Source of the DNA: a virus
Taxonomy: Duplodnaviria; Caudoviricetes
Virus record (IMG/VR): IMGVR_UViG_3300017754_000073
Span: 1-37,791 of that record
DNA: 37,791 nt
Reading direction: 5' to 3' (one strand)
The notes beneath the pieces were generated by a model, which saw only the letters and a list, made by a program, of their open reading frames with translations, had not been told where the DNA came from and made no database searches. The position numbers and the translations under genes are program-made. Shown here piece by piece: positions 2,613 to 31,249 of the stretch (the first letter of the stretch is position 1; each line of letters begins with the position of its first letter).

Positions 2613-4142
2613 CTAGCTTCCCATCCAAGAAGTGAGGGCAGCACCGTTTTGAGCGTTGCGCCGGATTGTTGTGCGGTCGTCAGTGTACTCTCGATGAGCC
2701 ACTGGGAAAGCAAACGTCACGCAGATCGCATCAGCGGCATCTGGAGAAGCAAGGCCTCTTGCCTTCATGTCCTTCTTGCTCTCCAAAAAGATGGTGCCTC
2801 TGGAATCAGGCTTGATCATAGGCGAAACCAGATCAGTCTTCAAGAACCTGTCCTTGGGGATGCTGGCAGATCTCAGCCAGTCCTTCATCTTGCCCCACAT
2901 CTCAGCGCGTTTGTTGCCGTACATGATGGGGTTGGCGCTTTTGTTGCCAAAGTTGATGCCCTTGATCTTGTAGCGCTGCTCTTTGAGCCGGTCAACGATG
3001 CCGGCTCCAAGGCCTCCTTCGTCAATGACCACCAGGGCAGGCTTGAACTCCTCAATGGCCTCAATGATGTGGCCCACCACCGTCATGGTGTCATCTCCTC
3101 GGTGGCGGTCGATCCTCACAATGTCACGGCCTTGCCGGATGGCGATCACGGTGGCATCGGCTCCAAAGCGTGCGGGGTCAACTCCAATGATGATGGGCGC
3201 GGTCTGGTCCTTGTACTTGGCCCTGCTCATGGCCTCGTCCACAATGCTCGACGGGATGAACTGGTCATCTCCAGCGTTGGGGAACTGGCCGTAAACCTCA
3301 ACGTGAGCCTGGCTGCTGTCTGGGCCATATTCGTCGATGATGTTCTGGTAAACAGCCTTGTCGGTGCCTTCGACTGTGCGGGCGTCCACCACCTTGGTGG
3401 TCCAGAAGTCTCGCTTGGAGTGGAACGTCTCGTAGAAGTAGCCAGTGTTTCGCCGTGGGTTGGAGAAAGCCAGCCACAAGCGATTAGGGGTGTTTTCGGT
3501 AAAGAATCCAGCCGTAACAGCCCAGATGCTGTCCTCGATACCGGAGGCTTCGTCAAAGATCACCATCACACCATCAAAGTTGTGGACTCCAGCGTAAGCG
3601 TCTGGGTTTTCGGCTGACCACAGCCGGCCCTCGACAGCCCAGTAGCGGGTGCCCTTCTTGAGATCCTTCTCAACCAGGTCGGTAAGCCAGTTGGCAGGGG
3701 TGATCTTGGTGGCCGCAACCTCAAACCAGTGGCTGTTGATGCTCATCGCCAACCACTTGGTGATCTCGGCCCATGTCACGGCTCTAAGCTGAGACTCGCT
3801 GTTGGCAGAGATGATCGTTGTCGAGCCTATGCGGGTGGAAAGCATCCAGATGGTGAGCCAACTGACGAGCGCAGACTTGCCGATACCACGGCCAGAAGAG
3901 ACTGCATGGCGCAGTGTCTCAAAATCTATGCGGCCCTGCTGGCGCTTGATGTGCGCAGTGATCTCTCTGAGCACTTCCCTTTGCCATTTGCGCGGACCCT
4001 TGAAGTTCGCCAGTGGCGTGTTCTCTTGGCCCCAAGGGAAAGCAAACAGCACAAAGGCTTCAGGGTCATCGGCAATCGCCGGCGTCCACAGCGTTGCCAT
4101 TAACTCCTGCTCGTCTTCGGGCTTGTAGATGGTGGTTTGCAT
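2613..4142 (-). CDS. terL: Terminase large subunit
   Basis: Walker A SGRGIGKS, Walker B VIFDEASG, motif III FSNP, RNase H-like nuclease IGVDPARFGAD and SPDAADA. Confidence 0.96.
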   Translation of the reverse strand: MQTTIYKPEDEQELMATLWTPAIADDPEAFVLFAFPWGQENTPLANFKGPRKWQREVLREITAHIKRQQGRIDFETLRHAVSSGRGIGKSALVSWLTIWMLSTRIGSTTIISANSESQLRAVTWAEITKWLAMSINSHWFEVAATKITPANWLTDLVEKDLKKGTRYWAVEGRLWSAENPDAYAGVHNFDGVMVIFDEASGIEDSIWAVTAGFFTENTPNRLWLAFSNPRRNTGYFYETFHSKRDFWTTKVVDARTVEGTDKAVYQNIIDEYGPDSSQAHVEVYGQFPNAGDDQFIPSSIVDEAMSRAKYKDQTAPIIIGVDPARFGADATVIAIRQGRDIVRIDRHRGDDTMTVVGHIIEAIEEFKPALVVIDEGGLGAGIVDRLKEQRYKIKGINFGNKSANPIMYGNKRAEMWGKMKDWLRSASIPKDRFLKTDLVSPMIKPDSRGTIFLESKKDMKARGLASPDAADAICVTFAFPVAHREYTDDRTTIRRNAQNGAALTSWMGS

Positions 4143-4170: not shown

Positions 4171-4377
4171 ATGATTCTATCCCCAATTGTCAACACCGAC
4201 ATCAAGATGCCAAAGCAAATGCTTGATGCTCTTGGCTTGCACGAAACCAGGTGCGTTGTCACCGGCGTCTCGGCTGTCACCGAGGCATCGGTGCGGGCGT
4301 TCTTGGCAGAACGGTACGGGGAAAAATTCGCCAGCAAATTCGACCCCAAATTCTTGTTCAGTATCCCAGGCGCTTGA
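4171..4377 (+). CDS. Small hypothetical protein, antisense to the packaging operon, probably leaderless
   Basis: 68 aa with protein-like composition; fills the gap between terL and the 474-aa gene; promoter directly upstream; 3' end overlaps the convergent gene by 20 nt. Confidence 0.65.
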   Translation: MILSPIVNTDIKMPKQMLDALGLHETRCVVTGVSAVTEASVRAFLAERYGEKFASKFDPKFLFSIPGA

Positions 4378-5782
4378 GCAACTGGTTGGTGATCACTCCA
4401 GAGTACGGCTTCATCTGCAACGCACGAATGTCCGTGGCTCTTGGGTTTTTCGGGTCCGGTATGCCTCTGGCCTGCACCACTTCCGGCATCAACTCAAAAA
4501 TGTTCCTGTCTTCCACCAACGTGCCCAAGCCCTGACCCGGCACCCCTCGGGGGTAAGACGGATGACCAGACTCCATGATCATCGGACGGCCAGCAAAGAT
4601 CTCGCCCACGTTCATCACACCACCCTCTTGCGCAGCCAGTTGCGCCGGATCAGACACAGCCAACCTCGCGCCACCAATGTTCAATCCTCCAGTGTCGCGG
4701 AAATTGGTGTCCATCATGTTCTTGACAGCCTTGCGCACCTTGTCCGGCGCATCGCGGAACTGCTGCACACTGGCCGGATCTGACACACCAGCCCACTCGG
4801 GAATCATCTTCTTGATCGACCGGTCCAGACTTCTTTTCTGCATCTTCCCCATCGCGCTGTCAGCATACGCCAACATCGTCTCACCAGTCATCGCAGCAAA
4901 ATCACCACCAGTCGGTGCCATGCGCCAAGGCATATACAACGGATCCTTGCCGGTCGCCTGCTTGATCTCCGCAGCCTGCTGCATCAACTGCTTGACCGGC
5001 TGCTGCGCACTGGCCCAAACCTGCCCAGGATTGTTGAACATGAAATCCTGCCCACCCATCAACTCCACAGGCCGGTTGAACTTCACATCGTCAATACCCA
5101 CCAGCTTGCCGCCAGCAGCCGTTCGGTCAGCCATGCTCGTGATAAACGGCCTGCCCTCAAAATCAGCCAGAGACACAGTGGGCGCATTCTGAGCACTAGG
5201 ATTCAACTGGATGTCGCGGGTCATCGCCTGCAAACGCTCTTGCTCCTTCACCCGTGGGTCAAACCTCGGGTCAAACACACCAAAGCCACTGCGGCCCTGC
5301 GTTGGCAATACCTGACTTCTGCTGCCCTGCACCAAACCCAGCGCCAGTTCAGCCGGCAAACCACCGCGCTCCATGATGCCCGGCAACACGCGCTCGGCGT
5401 AACGCTCACCAGCCTTGCCTGCTTGCATCGCAGCCTTAGTCGCAGCCCTTGATGCGGCCAATGTCGCCATCGTCACAGGCTGCGCTGCCGGTGCAACTGC
5501 CATCGCCGCCTCGATTGCCTCTGGCCGGATGCGTGTCGTCATCCCTGCACCAGTCGTCAAGGGTTCGCCGTAGGAAAGGCGGTCCAGTGTCTGGCTGATT
5601 GCCGGAGCACTGAGGAACTGGGCCAAGCCCTGCATCTGCTGCGTGCGCTGCGGTGCGTAAGACGCCGCCGCCAGATCAGCCAAATAACCCAGCACCTGAT
5701 TGCGCGGGGTCGCGCTCATGCTGTCTTGATACGCCAGCATGTTCGCTGGGCGCTGCGTGAGGGCGTTGCTGTAGATAGGCAT
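4358..5782 (-). CDS. Hypothetical protein, possibly an internal virion/injected protein (474 aa)
   Basis: Long ORF with genome-typical codons; Ala/Gln-rich N-terminal third resembling ejection proteins; globular C-terminal region with HPSYPRGVPG. Function not recognised. Confidence 0.8.
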   Translation of the reverse strand: MPIYSNALTQRPANMLAYQDSMSATPRNQVLGYLADLAAASYAPQRTQQMQGLAQFLSAPAISQTLDRLSYGEPLTTGAGMTTRIRPEAIEAAMAVAPAAQPVTMATLAASRAATKAAMQAGKAGERYAERVLPGIMERGGLPAELALGLVQGSRSQVLPTQGRSGFGVFDPRFDPRVKEQERLQAMTRDIQLNPSAQNAPTVSLADFEGRPFITSMADRTAAGGKLVGIDDVKFNRPVELMGGQDFMFNNPGQVWASAQQPVKQLMQQAAEIKQATGKDPLYMPWRMAPTGGDFAAMTGETMLAYADSAMGKMQKRSLDRSIKKMIPEWAGVSDPASVQQFRDAPDKVRKAVKNMMDTNFRDTGGLNIGGARLAVSDPAQLAAQEGGVMNVGEIFAGRPMIMESGHPSYPRGVPGQGLGTLVEDRNIFELMPEVVQARGIPDPKNPRATDIRALQMKPYSGVITNQLLKRLGY

Positions 5783-5794
5783 AGGGCGATGTTA

Positions 5795-5880
5795 AATCAA
5801 AAATCAAAAAACAAAAAATTAAAAAATGTCGGAGGGGGTACCGTGACCGTGGCCGTTCCCCGCCGGCCCCCACCCCCCCC
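5795..5880 (-). other. G-tract followed by repeated T-tracts; candidate packaging/terminus-associated sequence
   Basis: Minus strand reads G8-T-G5-CCGGC-G4...GGTACCCCC...TTTTTTAATTTTTTGTTTTTTGATTTTTGATTT, in non-coding DNA downstream of terS. Confidence 0.4.
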
Positions 5881-5910
5881 GCCTCGCCGGCCAAAAACGC
5901 CGGTTGCACG

Positions 5911-5999
5911 TTGTCCACAGGGTTTTTGTGCAGGTTATCCACAGCAGCCTGTGGATAACTGGGTTTGTAACCCGCAAGTGCTAGTAAATCTGTGGATAA
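5911..5999. promoter_or_regulatory. DnaA-box cluster
   Basis: TTGTCCACA 5911-5919 (1 mismatch), TTATCCACA 5935-5943, TGTGGATAA 5950-5958, TGTGGATAA 5991-5999. Confidence 0.85.
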
Positions 6000-6009
6000 C
6001 TTGGCATCG

Positions 6010-6037
6010 ACTTAACATAATGGACGTTGTATGAAGT
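6010..6037 (-). other. dif: dif-like XerC/XerD recombination site
   Basis: Minus strand ACTTCATACAA-CGTCCA-TTATGTTAAGT: 11-6-11 layout; right arm 10/11 identical to the E. coli XerD arm TTATGTTAAAT; arms are 8/11 inverted repeats. Confidence 0.8.
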
Positions 6038-6052
6038 AGACCTGCGTTTGCG

Positions 6053-6068
6053 TCAGGGTTAACCCTGA
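6053..6068. repeat. Perfect 16-bp palindrome TCAGGGTTAACCCTGA
   Basis: Read directly; 15 bp from the dif-like site. Confidence 0.7.
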
Positions 6069-6152: not shown

Positions 6153-6671
6153 TCACGAATCAACCGTCTTTGACTCAACATCGACGACATTGCTCTCGTC
6201 CTTTAAGACACGTTGTTTCGCTTCTTTCAGTGCATCCATGACGCTGATGCGTGTATCGGTCACGGCAACGTCGATGCGGTCGCCATAGCGTTTGGCGTAC
6301 AGCTTGGATGCAACCCACTTGCGAGCATCCACCTGCATCCGTTTTTGTTGAACCCAAGCAGATGCCATTGGTCCTTCCAAGTGTGCCGGCATTTCAGCGT
6401 CCGACAACTCGATGATCTCTTCAGCCAAACGATCTGCTCTGTTCTCGGTCGCCTTGTCATACATGGCTCGGAACTCTGCATTGTTCCGAATCATCACCAT
6501 TGCGCATTGAAGGCTTGGCATTCCTTCGGCTTTGAGTGTGGTGGTCAGGCTTTTGCCAGTTGAGATCTGTTTGCAGATTTCCTGCCAGCATGGGTGTTCA
6601 ATCGGAAACACGGGCTTTCGACCTGGCCCTTTTTTTGTCACTGTCATTTCTGACGCCAAGTTCTGAGTCAC
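6153..6671 (-). CDS. terS: Terminase small subunit (Sf6-like)
   Basis: EICKQISTGKSL...GMPS...EFRAMYDKA...ADRLAEEIIELSD...VDARKWVASKLYAKRYGD is the Sf6-type TerS pattern; GTG start with GGAG RBS. Confidence 0.92.
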   Translation of the reverse strand: MTQNLASEMTVTKKGPGRKPVFPIEHPCWQEICKQISTGKSLTTTLKAEGMPSLQCAMVMIRNNAEFRAMYDKATENRADRLAEEIIELSDAEMPAHLEGPMASAWVQQKRMQVDARKWVASKLYAKRYGDRIDVAVTDTRISVMDALKEAKQRVLKDESNVVDVESKTVDS

Positions 6672-7119: not shown

Positions 7120-7430
7120 TGTACCGACGATTCGACCCGACTTTGTGTACCGAACCGAAGGGGGTATATATACCCCTTCGGTACGTTTCGGTACAACGGG
7201 CAAGTCGGGCATCGGTACGTTTCGGTATGTTTCGGTACATCGGTACATGGTTTCGGTACGATTTGACTGTACCGAACGTACCGAAATCGGTACACATCGG
7301 TACGGTACGGTACATTTCGCCCTCAAAATAATTGCCGTTTCGGTACATCGGTACATCAATTCTGGCTGTTTCTGGCATAGTCATTGCTTAAACCGGCTCC
7401 GAATTTGATGCTTTCGGTACGGTTCGGTAC
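7120..7430. repeat. Iteron-like array (TCGGTAC/GTACCGA) with central palindrome; putative replication origin
   Basis: Roughly 18-20 copies of CGGTAC or its complement in about 310 bp; ACCGAAGGGGG-TATATATA-CCCCTTCGGT at 7154-7182; directly downstream of the primase-helicase gene. Confidence 0.8.
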
Positions 7431-9433
7431 AACTCATGACGCAGGCTGACCATATCCTTTTTGGTCAAGCCGTCCACCGACTCCTTAAACCGTCGAGCGT
7501 TCAGGCCGTGATTCTTGGCAGATTCCCGCCACTCATCGTAGTTCGCTGATACGGCCATGCCATCCATCCCATCAGCCTGTTTCTTGGCCTCGATGGCTAC
7601 CAAGCAGTTCAGTGCGATCAACTGGTTGCCGGGCAAGATCGTGCGCTTTTGGACGCTGCTCACCAGCCCCGAGATGTCCACTGTCGTGAGGTATGCCCCT
7701 TTGACTTCGTTGCCGTGCTTGTCGAGGATGGGCAGATCCACTTGGGTGATCTGGAAGTTCTTGGCCGCTGGCATTTCAGCGTCCTTCATCTTCTTGCTCT
7801 CAAACTGGATGGTCTTGGTGCCCGAATCCAATTGGCACTTGTACTCCGCATCCAATGCGCCCTTCAATGCTGTCGAACCCCTTGACCGATCCTTGTCCAT
7901 TGCTCCGCTGTGGTGGACCACCAGCACGCAGCACTTGTAGTCTTGGCGCAGATAGGTATCCAAGTGCTGGATGAACGAGTTCATGTCTTGGGTTGAGTTC
8001 TCGTCGCCGCCCATGTTCCGAGCCAGAGTGTCGATGACGATCATGGACGGAACATGCCCGCATTCGGCTGACAAAGTCTTGATGGCATCAGCCACCAACG
8101 CAGCCTCTGTCGCGTCATACAGTTGCGCTGCCCTGTGGCTCTTGAACAACGGTGCGCCGTCCAGTGTGGTGCCGTTGCCCAGTTCCCAGCCCTTAAACCT
8201 TCTTGCCAAGCCGTTGTGGCCTTCGCCGGCGATGTAAAACACCGCTCCTTGCTGAACTTGGTGGCCGTGCCAGTCTTTGCCGGTAGCAACGCAGCAGGCC
8301 AAGTCGATGCTGACGAATGACTTGCCCCCGCCTGGATCGCCGAACACCTGCGCCAGAGAGTCAGCCTCGATGTAGTCATCCACAATCCACCGAATCTCGC
8401 TCAGTGTCAGACTGTCTGCCCGAGAGAACTCAAACGCCAGCTTGTCACGCACTGGCCCTGCCACGCGCTCAATTTGTTCTTTCACGGCATCCAGTCCTTG
8501 CAGGCAGTGCAGGTCGTTCCAGTCTGTTGGCTTGTTGTCCACCATGTCCGCATCCCCAAAGCTGGGGTACACAATCTCGCCAAACACCAGCGCCGCAGCC
8601 GCACGGCCCTTGGTCACGCCAGGGTTGCCCTCGGTGAACTGGTCATTGTCTGCACCGATCACAATCTTTGCCGCAGGGAACATCTCTTTGGCCGCTTTGG
8701 CTACCTTGGCAAGGTTGCCGCAATCAAACGCCACCATGACCGTGTAGCCCGTTGCCTCATAAATTGACGCGCAAGTGGCAAACCCCTCACCCACAAACAC
8801 GATCTTGCGATTGCCTCGCAACTCAAAGAACCCGCCTTCGATCTTGCCGCCCTTCAAGAACCGTTTGTTGCCGTCCGAGTCAATGGTCTGGTACGACAAG
8901 ATCTCTCCAGCCTGATCAATGACTGGCACCACCAGCCGCCCAGCCCTGTCAATCTTGATCCCATGTGCGCTGATGTGTTTCCTCACCAAGTACGGGTGGT
9001 CGTCACTTGCGTCAGCATAGGTGCCCACCTCATCTTCTGCACGCTCTGCCGCCACTGCTTGGCTGGCCAATCTCTCTGCTTCTTTCTTGGCCTTGAGTTC
9101 TGCCACCCATTTGTCATGCTCAAATCTCTCGGTGAAAGACATGGTTCGCCCAATGTCAGCCACCCATTTGCTCTCAAAGGTAGGCTCTTTCCAGCACCCA
9201 GCGATGCCCACTGGCACTTTCCCACTGGTGTGCAAGATGTACCACCCATCTAGCGAGCCTTTCTTGGACGACACATGAGCCACGCGATGAATCTCGCCAT
9301 CAGCAATCAGGTCTTTGATCAGCAACCCATTGGCCTCACAGTGAGTGCGAAAAGCCGCTTCAGGGTTGATCAGGTCTTGGCTTTCTGTTGCAGCCGCAAA
9401 GCCATTGGGGAATATGGAAGTCAGGTTTGTCAT
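7388..9433 (-). CDS. Primase-helicase (TOPRIM primase + RepA/AAA_25-type helicase)
   Basis: TOPRIM motifs VGEGFAT, VAFDCGNL, IGADND, TDWND; Walker A GDPGGGKS; Walker B IVIDT; VHHSG...RGSTAL. Confidence 0.92.
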   Translation of the reverse strand: MTNLTSIFPNGFAAATESQDLINPEAAFRTHCEANGLLIKDLIADGEIHRVAHVSSKKGSLDGWYILHTSGKVPVGIAGCWKEPTFESKWVADIGRTMSFTERFEHDKWVAELKAKKEAERLASQAVAAERAEDEVGTYADASDDHPYLVRKHISAHGIKIDRAGRLVVPVIDQAGEILSYQTIDSDGNKRFLKGGKIEGGFFELRGNRKIVFVGEGFATCASIYEATGYTVMVAFDCGNLAKVAKAAKEMFPAAKIVIGADNDQFTEGNPGVTKGRAAAALVFGEIVYPSFGDADMVDNKPTDWNDLHCLQGLDAVKEQIERVAGPVRDKLAFEFSRADSLTLSEIRWIVDDYIEADSLAQVFGDPGGGKSFVSIDLACCVATGKDWHGHQVQQGAVFYIAGEGHNGLARRFKGWELGNGTTLDGAPLFKSHRAAQLYDATEAALVADAIKTLSAECGHVPSMIVIDTLARNMGGDENSTQDMNSFIQHLDTYLRQDYKCCVLVVHHSGAMDKDRSRGSTALKGALDAEYKCQLDSGTKTIQFESKKMKDAEMPAAKNFQITQVDLPILDKHGNEVKGAYLTTVDISGLVSSVQKRTILPGNQLIALNCLVAIEAKKQADGMDGMAVSANYDEWRESAKNHGLNARRFKESVDGLTKKDMVSLRHELYRTVPKASNSEPV

Positions 9434-10818
9434 TTGTTGATCTCTTGTTGAATTCTATGGCCGATCCAGCGCACAACTGGCACGGCCCATGAGTTGCCCA
9501 GCGCCTTATACCTTGGCCCGTCTGGTGATTCGTCTTTCTTGCGCCAAGGGATGTTGGTATACCCATCAGGAAACCCTTGCAACCTCTCACACTCCACAGG
9601 AGTCAACCGCCGAACGGCCATGTTTGGAATGGATGCCGCCAAATGCGCTGAGTAGTTGCTACCACATCTCATTGTTGGTGTGCCATCAATCACGGCATCA
9701 CCTCCGTGGTCGCAACGAGTGAAACCAACAGGCTGCGCCACCGCATGGCTGTGGCCCTTGGTAAGAGTAAACATAGCCTCGCCAGCCTCACCAATGCCGT
9801 ACCCAGTCGTTGGATCAGCATCAGCACCACGCAATGCGTTCATGCTGTTGATAGGGATTGGCTGCACTACATACGCCTTAGTGTCTGGCGCATGGTGCGA
9901 CCCACTGCAAGTATTAAGCGCAGGGGAAATAACTGGGATTAGGTGTTCATCATCACCAGACATGCCGCCTTCACCGGGTCTTCTGCATCGAAGGGTTTGC
10001 ACTGTAGATGCCGGAACAAATAGCGGACACCCAGCATTGACATGCTGATCTTCCAACCCTTGCTTGGTGCCAAAGGTGGTGTCAAGTGTGCTGCTCACTT
10101 CGGCTGGCCAGCTACGGCTTGTAGCGCTTGCTCCAGCGCTGGCGGCAATTGCTTGCCCCGTTTGTCTGCTCGGCGCAGTATCCCGGCGCACGCCGTTGAA
10201 CTCAAAAAGAACCGCTGTGGGATCGAAGTCTGCTCTAGCACTTGCGACAACGAACACACGGCGGCGTCGTTGGGCCACTCCGAAATATTGGGCGTCAAGG
10301 ACTCGCCACGCGACTGCTCTTTGGGGACCATACACACAACCTGCGTTCGTCCATTTTTCCCCTGGTGGGATGATCGGCTCATCTTCCCCGGCAAGTGCTC
10401 CAAGAAAGCAGCCGAAGGCGTTGTCTTTTGTGGAAAGGACTCCGGGGACGTTTTCCCAGAAGATGATTCCCGGAGCATCTCGTCGAACAGATCGAACATG
10501 GTCAATTGCATTGGCGATACCTACGAAAGTGAGTGAGAGGTTTCCCCTTGCGTCATCAAGGGAGTTGCGCAAGCCAGCCACAGAGAAGGCTTGGCATGGA
10601 GTGCCACCACAGAACAGGTCTGGGGCTTCAACCTCACCAGACAGGATGCGCTCTGGCAATGTGGTCATGTCGCCCAAGTTTGGGACATCAGGGTAATGGT
10701 GAGCCAGCACCGCAGATGGGAATGGCTCAATCTCTGACAGCCATGCGGCCTTCCAGCCAAGTGGATGCCAAGCGACAGATGCGGCCTCAATGCCGGAGCA
10801 GACAGAACCGAATCTCAC
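9430..10818 (-). CDS. C5 cytosine DNA methyltransferase
   Basis: Motif I SVCSGIEA, IV GGTPCQAFS, VI WENVPG, VIII QRRRRVF, IX RRLTPVECERLQGFP, X ALGNSWAVP. Confidence 0.95.
   Translation of the reverse strand: MRFGSVCSGIEAASVAWHPLGWKAAWLSEIEPFPSAVLAHHYPDVPNLGDMTTLPERILSGEVEAPDLFCGGTPCQAFSVAGLRNSLDDARGNLSLTFVGIANAIDHVRSVRRDAPGIIFWENVPGVLSTKDNAFGCFLGALAGEDEPIIPPGEKWTNAGCVYGPQRAVAWRVLDAQYFGVAQRRRRVFVVASARADFDPTAVLFEFNGVRRDTAPSRQTGQAIAASAGASATSRSWPAEVSSTLDTTFGTKQGLEDQHVNAGCPLFVPASTVQTLRCRRPGEGGMSGDDEHLIPVISPALNTCSGSHHAPDTKAYVVQPIPINSMNALRGADADPTTGYGIGEAGEAMFTLTKGHSHAVAQPVGFTRCDHGGDAVIDGTPTMRCGSNYSAHLAASIPNMAVRRLTPVECERLQGFPDGYTNIPWRKKDESPDGPRYKALGNSWAVPVVRWIGHRIQQEINK
10095..10511 (-). CDS. Nested alternative-frame ORF, resembling the M.EcoHK31I beta polypeptide
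   Basis: Same strand, different frame, wholly within the MTase gene; C-terminal SLSQVLE...PQRFFLSSTACAGILRRADKRGKQLPPALEQAL recalled as typical of such beta polypeptides. Start codon uncertain. Confidence 0.65.
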   Translation of the reverse strand: MQLTMFDLFDEMLRESSSGKTSPESFPQKTTPSAAFLEHLPGKMSRSSHQGKNGRTQVVCMVPKEQSRGESLTPNISEWPNDAAVCSLSQVLEQTSIPQRFFLSSTACAGILRRADKRGKQLPPALEQALQAVAGQPK

Positions 10819-30715: not shown

Positions 30716-31249
30716 TCAATTTCCTTTAAATGATGATGAAGACTGGTGAGGACACACGCCGCCGTTTTTGTGTTTCCCTGTATTACAGTTCATACAAAGA
30801 ACCTGATACCCCGAAGGGAACTTGTTCTTACGAAGCCAGAGGTAGAAACCAATCCCAGAACCTGCGTACAGACCTGATCTTCGCTCCTCGGCACCGTTGT
30901 TGTCAATATGATCTATTGAGAGAAACATTGGCTCACTTTCACCGCAGCAGTTGCACTTGTATCCACCATAGGCTTCAAACACTTGCGCTCTGCACCGATC
31001 TTGATTGCGCTTGGTTTTCGCAGATTCAGCAGCCCTAAGTGCAGCAACTTCTTCTGGTGTCCCATTTGCAATTTTTCGGTTGCGGTGTTCACGTTTATGC
31101 TGACGGTCTTTCAACCGATTCGCTTCACGCCAGTCCCGCATACGCTGATTAACCCATTCCCGGTTGCGCTCTCTGTATCTGGCCGCTGCTTCCTTGTTGC
31201 GTTGCCGCTTCAATTCTTCCGCAGTCAGAGACTGATTATCCTTTTCCAT
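30716..31249 (-). CDS. Free-standing HNH homing endonuclease
   Basis: Basic helical N-terminus; CNCCGE...LSIDHIDNNG...YQVLCMNCN; AT-richer; inserted between scaffold and coat. Confidence 0.88.
   Translation of the reverse strand: MEKDNQSLTAEELKRQRNKEAAARYRERNREWVNQRMRDWREANRLKDRQHKREHRNRKIANGTPEEVAALRAAESAKTKRNQDRCRAQVFEAYGGYKCNCCGESEPMFLSIDHIDNNGAEERRSGLYAGSGIGFYLWLRKNKFPSGYQVLCMNCNTGKHKNGGVCPHQSSSSFKGN

Follow-up and report, generated by a model that had tools for sequence, protein, structure and literature searches.

A conserved dif-like Xer site with an adjoining DnaA-box array near the predicted genome end of tailed phages

In a nearly complete genome of a tailed phage (Caudoviricetes; IMG/VR record IMGVR_UViG_3300017754_000073, positions 1 to 37,791, analysed whole and called the window here), the non-coding DNA that follows the small terminase gene (terS) carries a 28-mer that is a conserved Xer-type site, predicted to be bound and recombined by XerC and XerD. 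An array of DnaA-type boxes begins at a fixed distance from its XerD arm, and these phages are characterised by a strict coupling of the dif-like site with the boxes. We tentatively propose, with a probability of about 0.45, that host XerCD recombines the cassette with its own second copy in repeated genome ends, so that the injected DNA would be closed into a circle.

In the literature covered, the phages described as hijackers of host XerCD are filamentous, microvirus and satellite phages, which use it for integration, and plasmids use it for dimer resolution. No account of a dif-like site plus a DnaA array in a tailed phage was found in that literature, which lacks most subscription journals. 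If the proposal is true, tailed phages would put host XerCD to a third use, at the ends of their own genomes, and phages that lack a recombinase would have a way to circularise.

Results

The window belongs to a P22-like podovirus with genes for the large terminase (terL), TerS, a primase, Sak4, a Cas4-like nuclease, a helicase and head and tail proteins (Table 1). A first-pass annotation, drawn from the letters of the window alone, had recognised no phage recombinase. This still holds, as no tyrosine recombinase (PF00589) was found in the window and no integrase among the ORFs scanned, and PF00589 and the serine resolvase domain PF00239 were each absent from a set of 50 related records (0/50), with 17 near-complete records in either set. 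An integrase hidden in the sequence gap is also unlikely, because the gap between the window ends is only about 210 bp and, judging from a relative (G205), falls in the portal gene region. The one repressor-type gene is Cro-like, and the gene content looks lytic. The 474-aa ORF on the terL side of the cassette is present, absent or exchanged among close relatives, and is missing in many. Elsewhere, the end of the primase gene (7160-7435) holds iteron-like repeats, with TTCGGTAC units and a GGGGGTATATATACCCC palindrome, that are likely to be the phage's own replication origin. A cytosine-type methyltransferase gene (9430-10818) is skipped in two related phages, and an HNH gene (30716-31249) lies between the scaffold and capsid genes.

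Table 1. Features of the cassette and its surroundings in the window
Feature	Positions	Strand	Remarks
terL	2613..4142	-	
474-aa ORF	4358..5782	-	no Pfam or PHROG family; between cassette/end motif and terL
G-run, GGTACCCC, T-run motif	5797..5885	-	predicted terminase recognition or genome-end signal
DnaA box 4	5911..5919	+	+101, one mismatch
DnaA box 3	5935..5943	+	+77, opposite orientation
DnaA box 2	5950..5958	-	+62 from XerD arm start
DnaA box 1	5991..5999	-	exactly 10 bp from XerD arm
Xer core site	6037->6010	-	ACTTCATACAA-CGTCCA-TTATGTTAAGT; 11-6-11 layout; 115 bp after terS stop
XerD-type arm	6010..6020	-	11/11 to Rhodoferax dif; two variants only in 80/80 terS-selected loci (67 + 13)
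Central hexamer CGTCCA	6021..6026	-	unlike host TGTATA
XerC-type arm	6027..6037	-	9/11 to Rhodoferax dif; 10/11 to dif of L393/L407/L409
Palindrome, 16 bp, perfect	6053..6068	.	before XerC arm
terS, Sf6-like small terminase	6153..6671	-	

The dif-like 28-mer of 11-6-11 layout after terS had been proposed in the first-pass annotation, and it was borne out by a position-weight scan with a matrix made solely from 56 fetched bacterial dif candidates, in which the centre is unscored. With this matrix the 28-mer reached 33.1 bits, much like chromosomal dif and just above the range of host sites (22.2-32.8 bits). The second-best independent site of the window had 1.6 bits, and the best match in 12 block-shuffled windows 11.9 bits. 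The identities to E. coli dif had been read correctly, being 5/11 for the left arm and 10/11 for the XerD arm when compared with dif of MG1655. The likeness to Comamonadaceae arms is confirmed by comparison with betaproteobacterial sites: both arms together match the published dif of Rhodoferax ferrireducens (PMC2731167) in 20/22 positions, and the dif of three genomes from one family of the same order (L393, L407 and L409) in 21/22. Because of these identities a Comamonadaceae host is likely, and the arms of dif-like phage sites would in general point to the host family. In the family of the three genomes the search pattern matched in 98 of 201 genomes, and TGTATA made up 21 of the 29 centres fetched. 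The tallies for the whole order include an unpublished genome (G024), on which none of the claims depends by itself. The ACRA-type arm was rare in the Burkholderiaceae sample around G001 (13/251), so that the Polynucleobacter label on one locus (L205) is a weak host clue. The intergenic region had no BLAST match in cultured phages, and a 36-mer alone gave weak matches only, with E about 5.

To follow the site in related phages, we took relatives chosen only by terS (the best 80 of 250, with 70-98% terS similarity), and all 80 carried it, one of them with a poor XerC arm. Among 236 distinct cassettes the XerC arm held 1.41 bits per column versus 0.37 for the upstream flank, and there were 20 different centres. 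The departure from TGTATA that had been noted for the window extends to these relatives, since no centre ends in ATA, the host XerD-side half (0/236), and 231 end in CA. The host XerC-side half, TGT, begins 82 of the centres; the remaining 154, the window's among them, start otherwise, and the first base is C or T in 235. Even close relatives (71-98% terS identity) carry CGTCCA, CGTTCA, CACTCA or CACCCA. By our estimate, the arm-plus-box pattern occurs in some 480 viral and 290 metagenome stretches. Four groups were distinguished, with three terL families: A, which includes the window, B and C, with terL 30-32% identical to that of A, and D, whose terL was not matched by BLAST to that of any other group. 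The 11 long genomes had one cassette apiece, and in 238 loci (duplicates kept) the cassette ran in the direction of the genes in 151 and against it in 87.

The DnaA-type boxes (three perfect and one with a single mismatch, within 5911-5999) had been overlooked in the earlier reading. The 10-bp gap between the XerD arm and the first box was found in 79 of the 80 terS-selected loci, and, when gaps of 0-30 bp were allowed, in 66 of 95 matches. The gap sequence is variable (0.54 bits per column) and the arm and box are constant, those columns being partly selected by the pattern itself. All of 137 cassettes had two to six boxes, with modal offsets of +21, +62, +77 and +101, so that they share with oriC the presence of several boxes in conserved spacing. 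No DnaA box was seen beside dif among the host sites examined, and the box-pair layout of the phage was not found in five host genomes, in which oriC was not located. The window has three perfect boxes within 65 bp, versus 6-24 in each of these five whole genomes. On the other hand, a dif-like site was near only 10 of 102 viral DnaA-box pairs, and since the other 92 lacked it, arm site and boxes are separable elements. That the XerD-DnaA spacing stays constant in three terminase families suggests that two core chromosome proteins cooperate in a way not yet described.

Other sequences were observed in or about the cassettes. Some viral contigs (L247, L314, L278, L285 and L321), one of them a 156-kb record, have a XerD-type arm plus DnaA boxes with gaps of 3-30 bp. 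The 16-bp palindrome is kept in a minority of relatives (25 of 137 cassettes), always at one set distance ahead of the XerC arm, and its core (within 6053-6068) has three sites in host genome G873. Using a motif that we take to be the SlmA binding site, strict matching detected palindromes of this kind in 13 of 137 cassettes, none in the window and none in G873; clusters of them flank inverted cassettes in some relatives (L032, L062, L064, L079 and others). The sequence GGGNAGGG was present in 79 of 137 cassettes. A reading of the G-run as KOPS was discarded, as GGGNAGGG is absent near the site in the window and has no genome-wide polarity.

We then compared the position of the cassette with that of the predicted genome-end signal. 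In 11/11 long genomes, the far edge of the cassette was 145-241 bp before a G/C run that is followed by an A/T run, and this link spans the three terL families. Because the probable terS of group D lies after the motif, the cassette tracks the end motif and not terS. In Sinorhizobium phage phiM5, with a terL that shares 53-55% identity with those of groups B and C, the annotated direct terminal repeat of 357 bp begins 314 bp ahead of a C-run/G-run arranged in the same way and extends 13 bp past it; an A-run follows this motif. A repeat of such size would hold the whole cassette, and if the DNA is cut as in phiM5, we infer that the cassette would lie in both virion DNA ends. The case would be weaker for the group of the window, whose terL is 32% identical to that of phiM5 and whose G-run motif differs from the C-run type of this phage. 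No termini data for the terL subfamily of the window were found in the literature covered, and the available text of PMC10386132 is silent on termini. A motif of this kind or a related terL is present, with no cassette, in phages phiM5, DSL-LC05, C22, RpY1 and DU_RP_II, so that the cassette is dispensable for the packaging module. We tried contig ends as a proxy for termini. In one group they were slightly enriched immediately beyond the cassette, but the proxy was rejected, since many contigs terminate in C-runs or in linker sequence from the library.

Cultured phages also carry dif-like sites at genome ends. A search with E. coli dif at a loose threshold returned 363 phage records, with many rV5-like phages among the matches listed. 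In HdK5, both E. coli arms and a TGGGTA centre are inside an exact 459-bp repeat; in Ralstonia phage RpY2, a site with centre GGTCCA is inside an exact 236-bp repeat; and in Hena1 the site is inside an annotated 519-bp repeat. No DnaA boxes were found in the dif-bearing repeats of HdK5 and Hena1, nor at the RpY2 end. Phage C72C1 (L573) has a weaker site (11.7 bits, centre CGTCCA) between terS and terL, just before the same G/C-run motif. Separately, Escherichia phage SHIN8 (L580) has a weaker dif-like site with centre CGTCTA, which is also a centre of this set.

Finally, we searched for integrated copies, since integration at the chromosome terminus had been one of the roles first suggested. 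It found no support: we detected no junction and no provirus record, and the centre lacks the host XerD-side half. The pattern that an integrated copy would keep was present in three places in 185,579 prokaryote genomes; L203 and L204 were discarded, as they are without a XerC-type arm and are likely chance matches, and the only phage-type match is a 13-kb phage contig that runs on without interruption. Of the 228 flanks long enough for a test in 120 metagenome loci, 227 matched phage DNA and the remaining one is similar to a different phage locus, and 226 distinct XerC-side flanks comprised 170 terminase-region matches and 56 with a loosely defined phage end motif. None of 113 distinct virus records was classed as a provirus, a label that the tool is known to give. 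Three candidate junctions (L561, L525 and a 68-kb contig with two copies, L489/L509) all proved to be phage DNA. Logan contigs from 4 of 24 listed runs were unbroken across the site in X2 and X3 and broken nearby in X1, which may be the sample of origin, and in X24; such contigs cannot show genome ends, and the comparison covered a minority of their loose ends. Assemblies can miss rare prophages or drop rare junctions, and it is with this reserve that prophage junctions are reported absent from the host genomes and metagenomes searched. Second dif-like sites in five host genomes were considered as possible copies of this phage and rejected, as four had only a primase match to the window proteins and one had none. 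These results make integration at host dif unlikely, and dif-like sites in tailed phages should not be taken as evidence of lysogeny.

Discussion

We believe that circularisation of the injected genome, with a probability a little under one half, is the reading that best joins these observations. A cassette inside a short terminal repeat, or inside the redundancy of the first headful, would be present at each end of the DNA; host XerC and XerD would recombine the two copies and yield a closed circle with no integration. Where a circle holds one copy, dimer resolution would take place instead. DnaA, bound one helical turn from XerD, is a candidate for the part that ArgR and ArcA play at cer and psi; alternatively, it may start the first replication round on the new circle, protect the end or brake DNA entry. 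As for the centre, the loss of the host XerD-side half would stop FtsK-driven exchange with the chromosome from reaching completion. Since matching between self copies would suffice, the centre would be free to drift, and variable centres that never end in ATA are expected if the site need match only its own copy. The conserved arms, the single site per genome, the free orientation and the dif-like sites inside the terminal repeats of HdK5, RpY2 and Hena1 are also in line with circularisation. The model presumes the Comamonadaceae host, the location of the cassette in the redundancy, the binding of XerCD and DnaA and the recombination itself, which are all predicted from sequence.

Several facts weigh against circularisation. 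The terL of the window is distant from that of phiM5, and the dif-bearing repeats of HdK5 and Hena1 are without DnaA boxes. The phage also encodes the Sak4 annealing protein and an exonuclease, which could circularise the DNA by homology. Moreover, plasmid Xer sites need a supercoiled substrate according to the available text of two preprints (bioRxiv 10.1101/2024.04.05.588136 and 10.64898/2026.02.23.706985), and this requirement counts against the model because the incoming genome is linear. The same texts place the accessory sequences of plasmids, with ArgR/ArcA boxes, on the XerC side at a fixed distance. It is decidedly doubtful, in our opinion, that DnaA is a new Xer accessory factor that bridges both linear ends and triggers FtsK-independent recombination. 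With regard to the side on which the boxes lie, Bregu reportedly found in 2002 that strand exchange proceeds in the opposite order when accessory DNA is placed next to the XerD arm. Were circularisation true in this form, two chromosome proteins of the host would serve phages without a recombinase to close their genome, and the start of infection would be tied to the DnaA state of the host.

The first-pass annotation had also suggested resolution of genome multimers or of a plasmid-like prophage. The former part can be kept as an unlikely alternative, in which XerCD would resolve dimers or catenanes of the phage's own replicating circles into monomers, during theta replication or in a carrier state. 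The DnaA array would then be an accessory sequence, or else an origin that depends on DnaA. Resolution predicts the same self-by-self signature as circularisation, and the centres resemble those of plasmids (GATCCA in psi, CGCCCA and CCGCCA in Acinetobacter pdif). In addition, integrase-bearing primase elements in host genomes have internal dif-like sites with non-host centres so that such sites do exist where another enzyme performs the integration. However, resolution leaves the constant link with the end motif unexplained, the phage has a distinct iteron-like region after its primase gene, and KOPS shows no bias over the genome. The plasmid-like prophage found no support: the replication and partition genes of a phage-plasmid were not found, with ParA absent from 48 records (18 near-complete) and Rep, ParB and CI-type proteins without a match in the scanned ORFs of the window and four complete relatives (134 of the 165 ORFs of three of these and 28 of the 54 of the fourth). 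A carrier state is possible. As to the host-genome mobile elements themselves, five have an internal dif-like site with a non-host centre: L410 (G830:C5:9947), L414 (G709:C2:85131), L415 (G699:C1:2196514), L416 (G853:C66:9158) and L417 (G775:C1:668004). Four of the sites are near a DUF927/PriCT-2 primase, and three adjoin an integrase gene that belongs to the element. In four cases a perfect DnaA box is found on the XerC side at a distance of 142-166 bp.

It is unlikely, too, that XerC, XerD and DnaA merely bind the genome end with no strand exchange, whether for end protection, as a brake on DNA entry, for DNA anchoring or for titration of host proteins. Such binding would agree with the density of perfect boxes in the window, with the frequency of DnaA-box pairs without dif in viral contigs and with T5-like phages, for which the available text of a preprint (bioRxiv 10.1101/866236) describes ordered DnaA boxes in the terminal repeat and proposes an injection stop. 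Nevertheless, both arms and their 6-bp spacing are kept, and the centre is non-random in its first base and its CA end, a pattern suggestive of selection that acts on strand exchange or on the geometry of the junction.

An attachment site of the VGJphi type, at which a XerC-first exchange with host dif would split terS from terL, is in our judgement improbable. It would fit with the absence of an integrase, with phage arms that are 20-21/22 identical to host dif and with the 82 centres that retain TGT, and the XerD-side half of the centre is likewise the part in which the VGJphi attP is unlike dif (PMC5357621, in the text available). For gokushoviruses, the portion of PMC7062461 available to us states that the spacer of the dif motifs varies and integration still occurs, and that prophages retaining dif motifs are rarely detected. 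On the contrary, the XerC-side half differs from TGT in 154 of 236 cassettes, including the window (CGT versus TGT in the presumed host), no junction or provirus appeared in host genomes, metagenome flanks or the 113 virus records, no CI-type repressor was found in the ORFs scanned, and contigs were unbroken across the site in two public runs. Thus, neither the XerC-side match nor the integrated state of VGJphi was found for the window. Lastly, a DnaA-regulated promoter with a -10 that mimics the XerD arm, or a chance likeness, is very improbable: although one weak match to a sigma-70 promoter extends over parts of box 1 and the XerD arm (9/12 matches, with 0.3 expected by chance), the 28-mer reaches 33 bits where shuffled windows reach no more than 11.9, conservation includes the XerC arm, and over a third of the loci (87/238) have the cassette running against the genes.

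Compared with chromosomal dif of Comamonadaceae, the phage site has the same 11-6-11 layout and near-identical arms, but it differs in its centre (TGTATA in dif), in the DnaA box at 10 bp and in having no KOPS bias. The plasmid sites psi (pSC101), cer (ColE1) and Acinetobacter pdif likewise combine a XerCD core with a non-dif centre, which also ends in CCA in psi. Both psi and cer have, in addition, boxes for host regulators at a fixed distance; these are, however, ArgR/ArcA boxes on the XerC side, whereas those of the phage are of the DnaA type, 10 bp off, on the XerD side. VGJphi, CTXphi, TLCphi and enterobacterial gokushoviruses (IMEX) are also integrase-less phages with a dif-like site, but these ssDNA or satellite phages occur as integrated copies at dif; for the present phages, no junction was detected and the XerC-side centre is not kept. 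The terminal repeat of T5 likewise has ordered DnaA boxes in non-coding DNA at the genome end, but T5 injects its DNA in two steps, has eight boxes in pairs and, in the text available (bioRxiv 10.1101/866236), comes with no mention of Xer. The rV5-like phages and RpY2 are tailed phages that also have host-type arms with an altered centre; they lack a DnaA array, and their terminal repeats are on record, whereas here they are only predicted. In phage P1, loxP lies in the terminal redundancy and Cre recombination closes the injected DNA, a role like that proposed here for XerCD, with the difference that P1 encodes its own recombinase and has a plasmid prophage.
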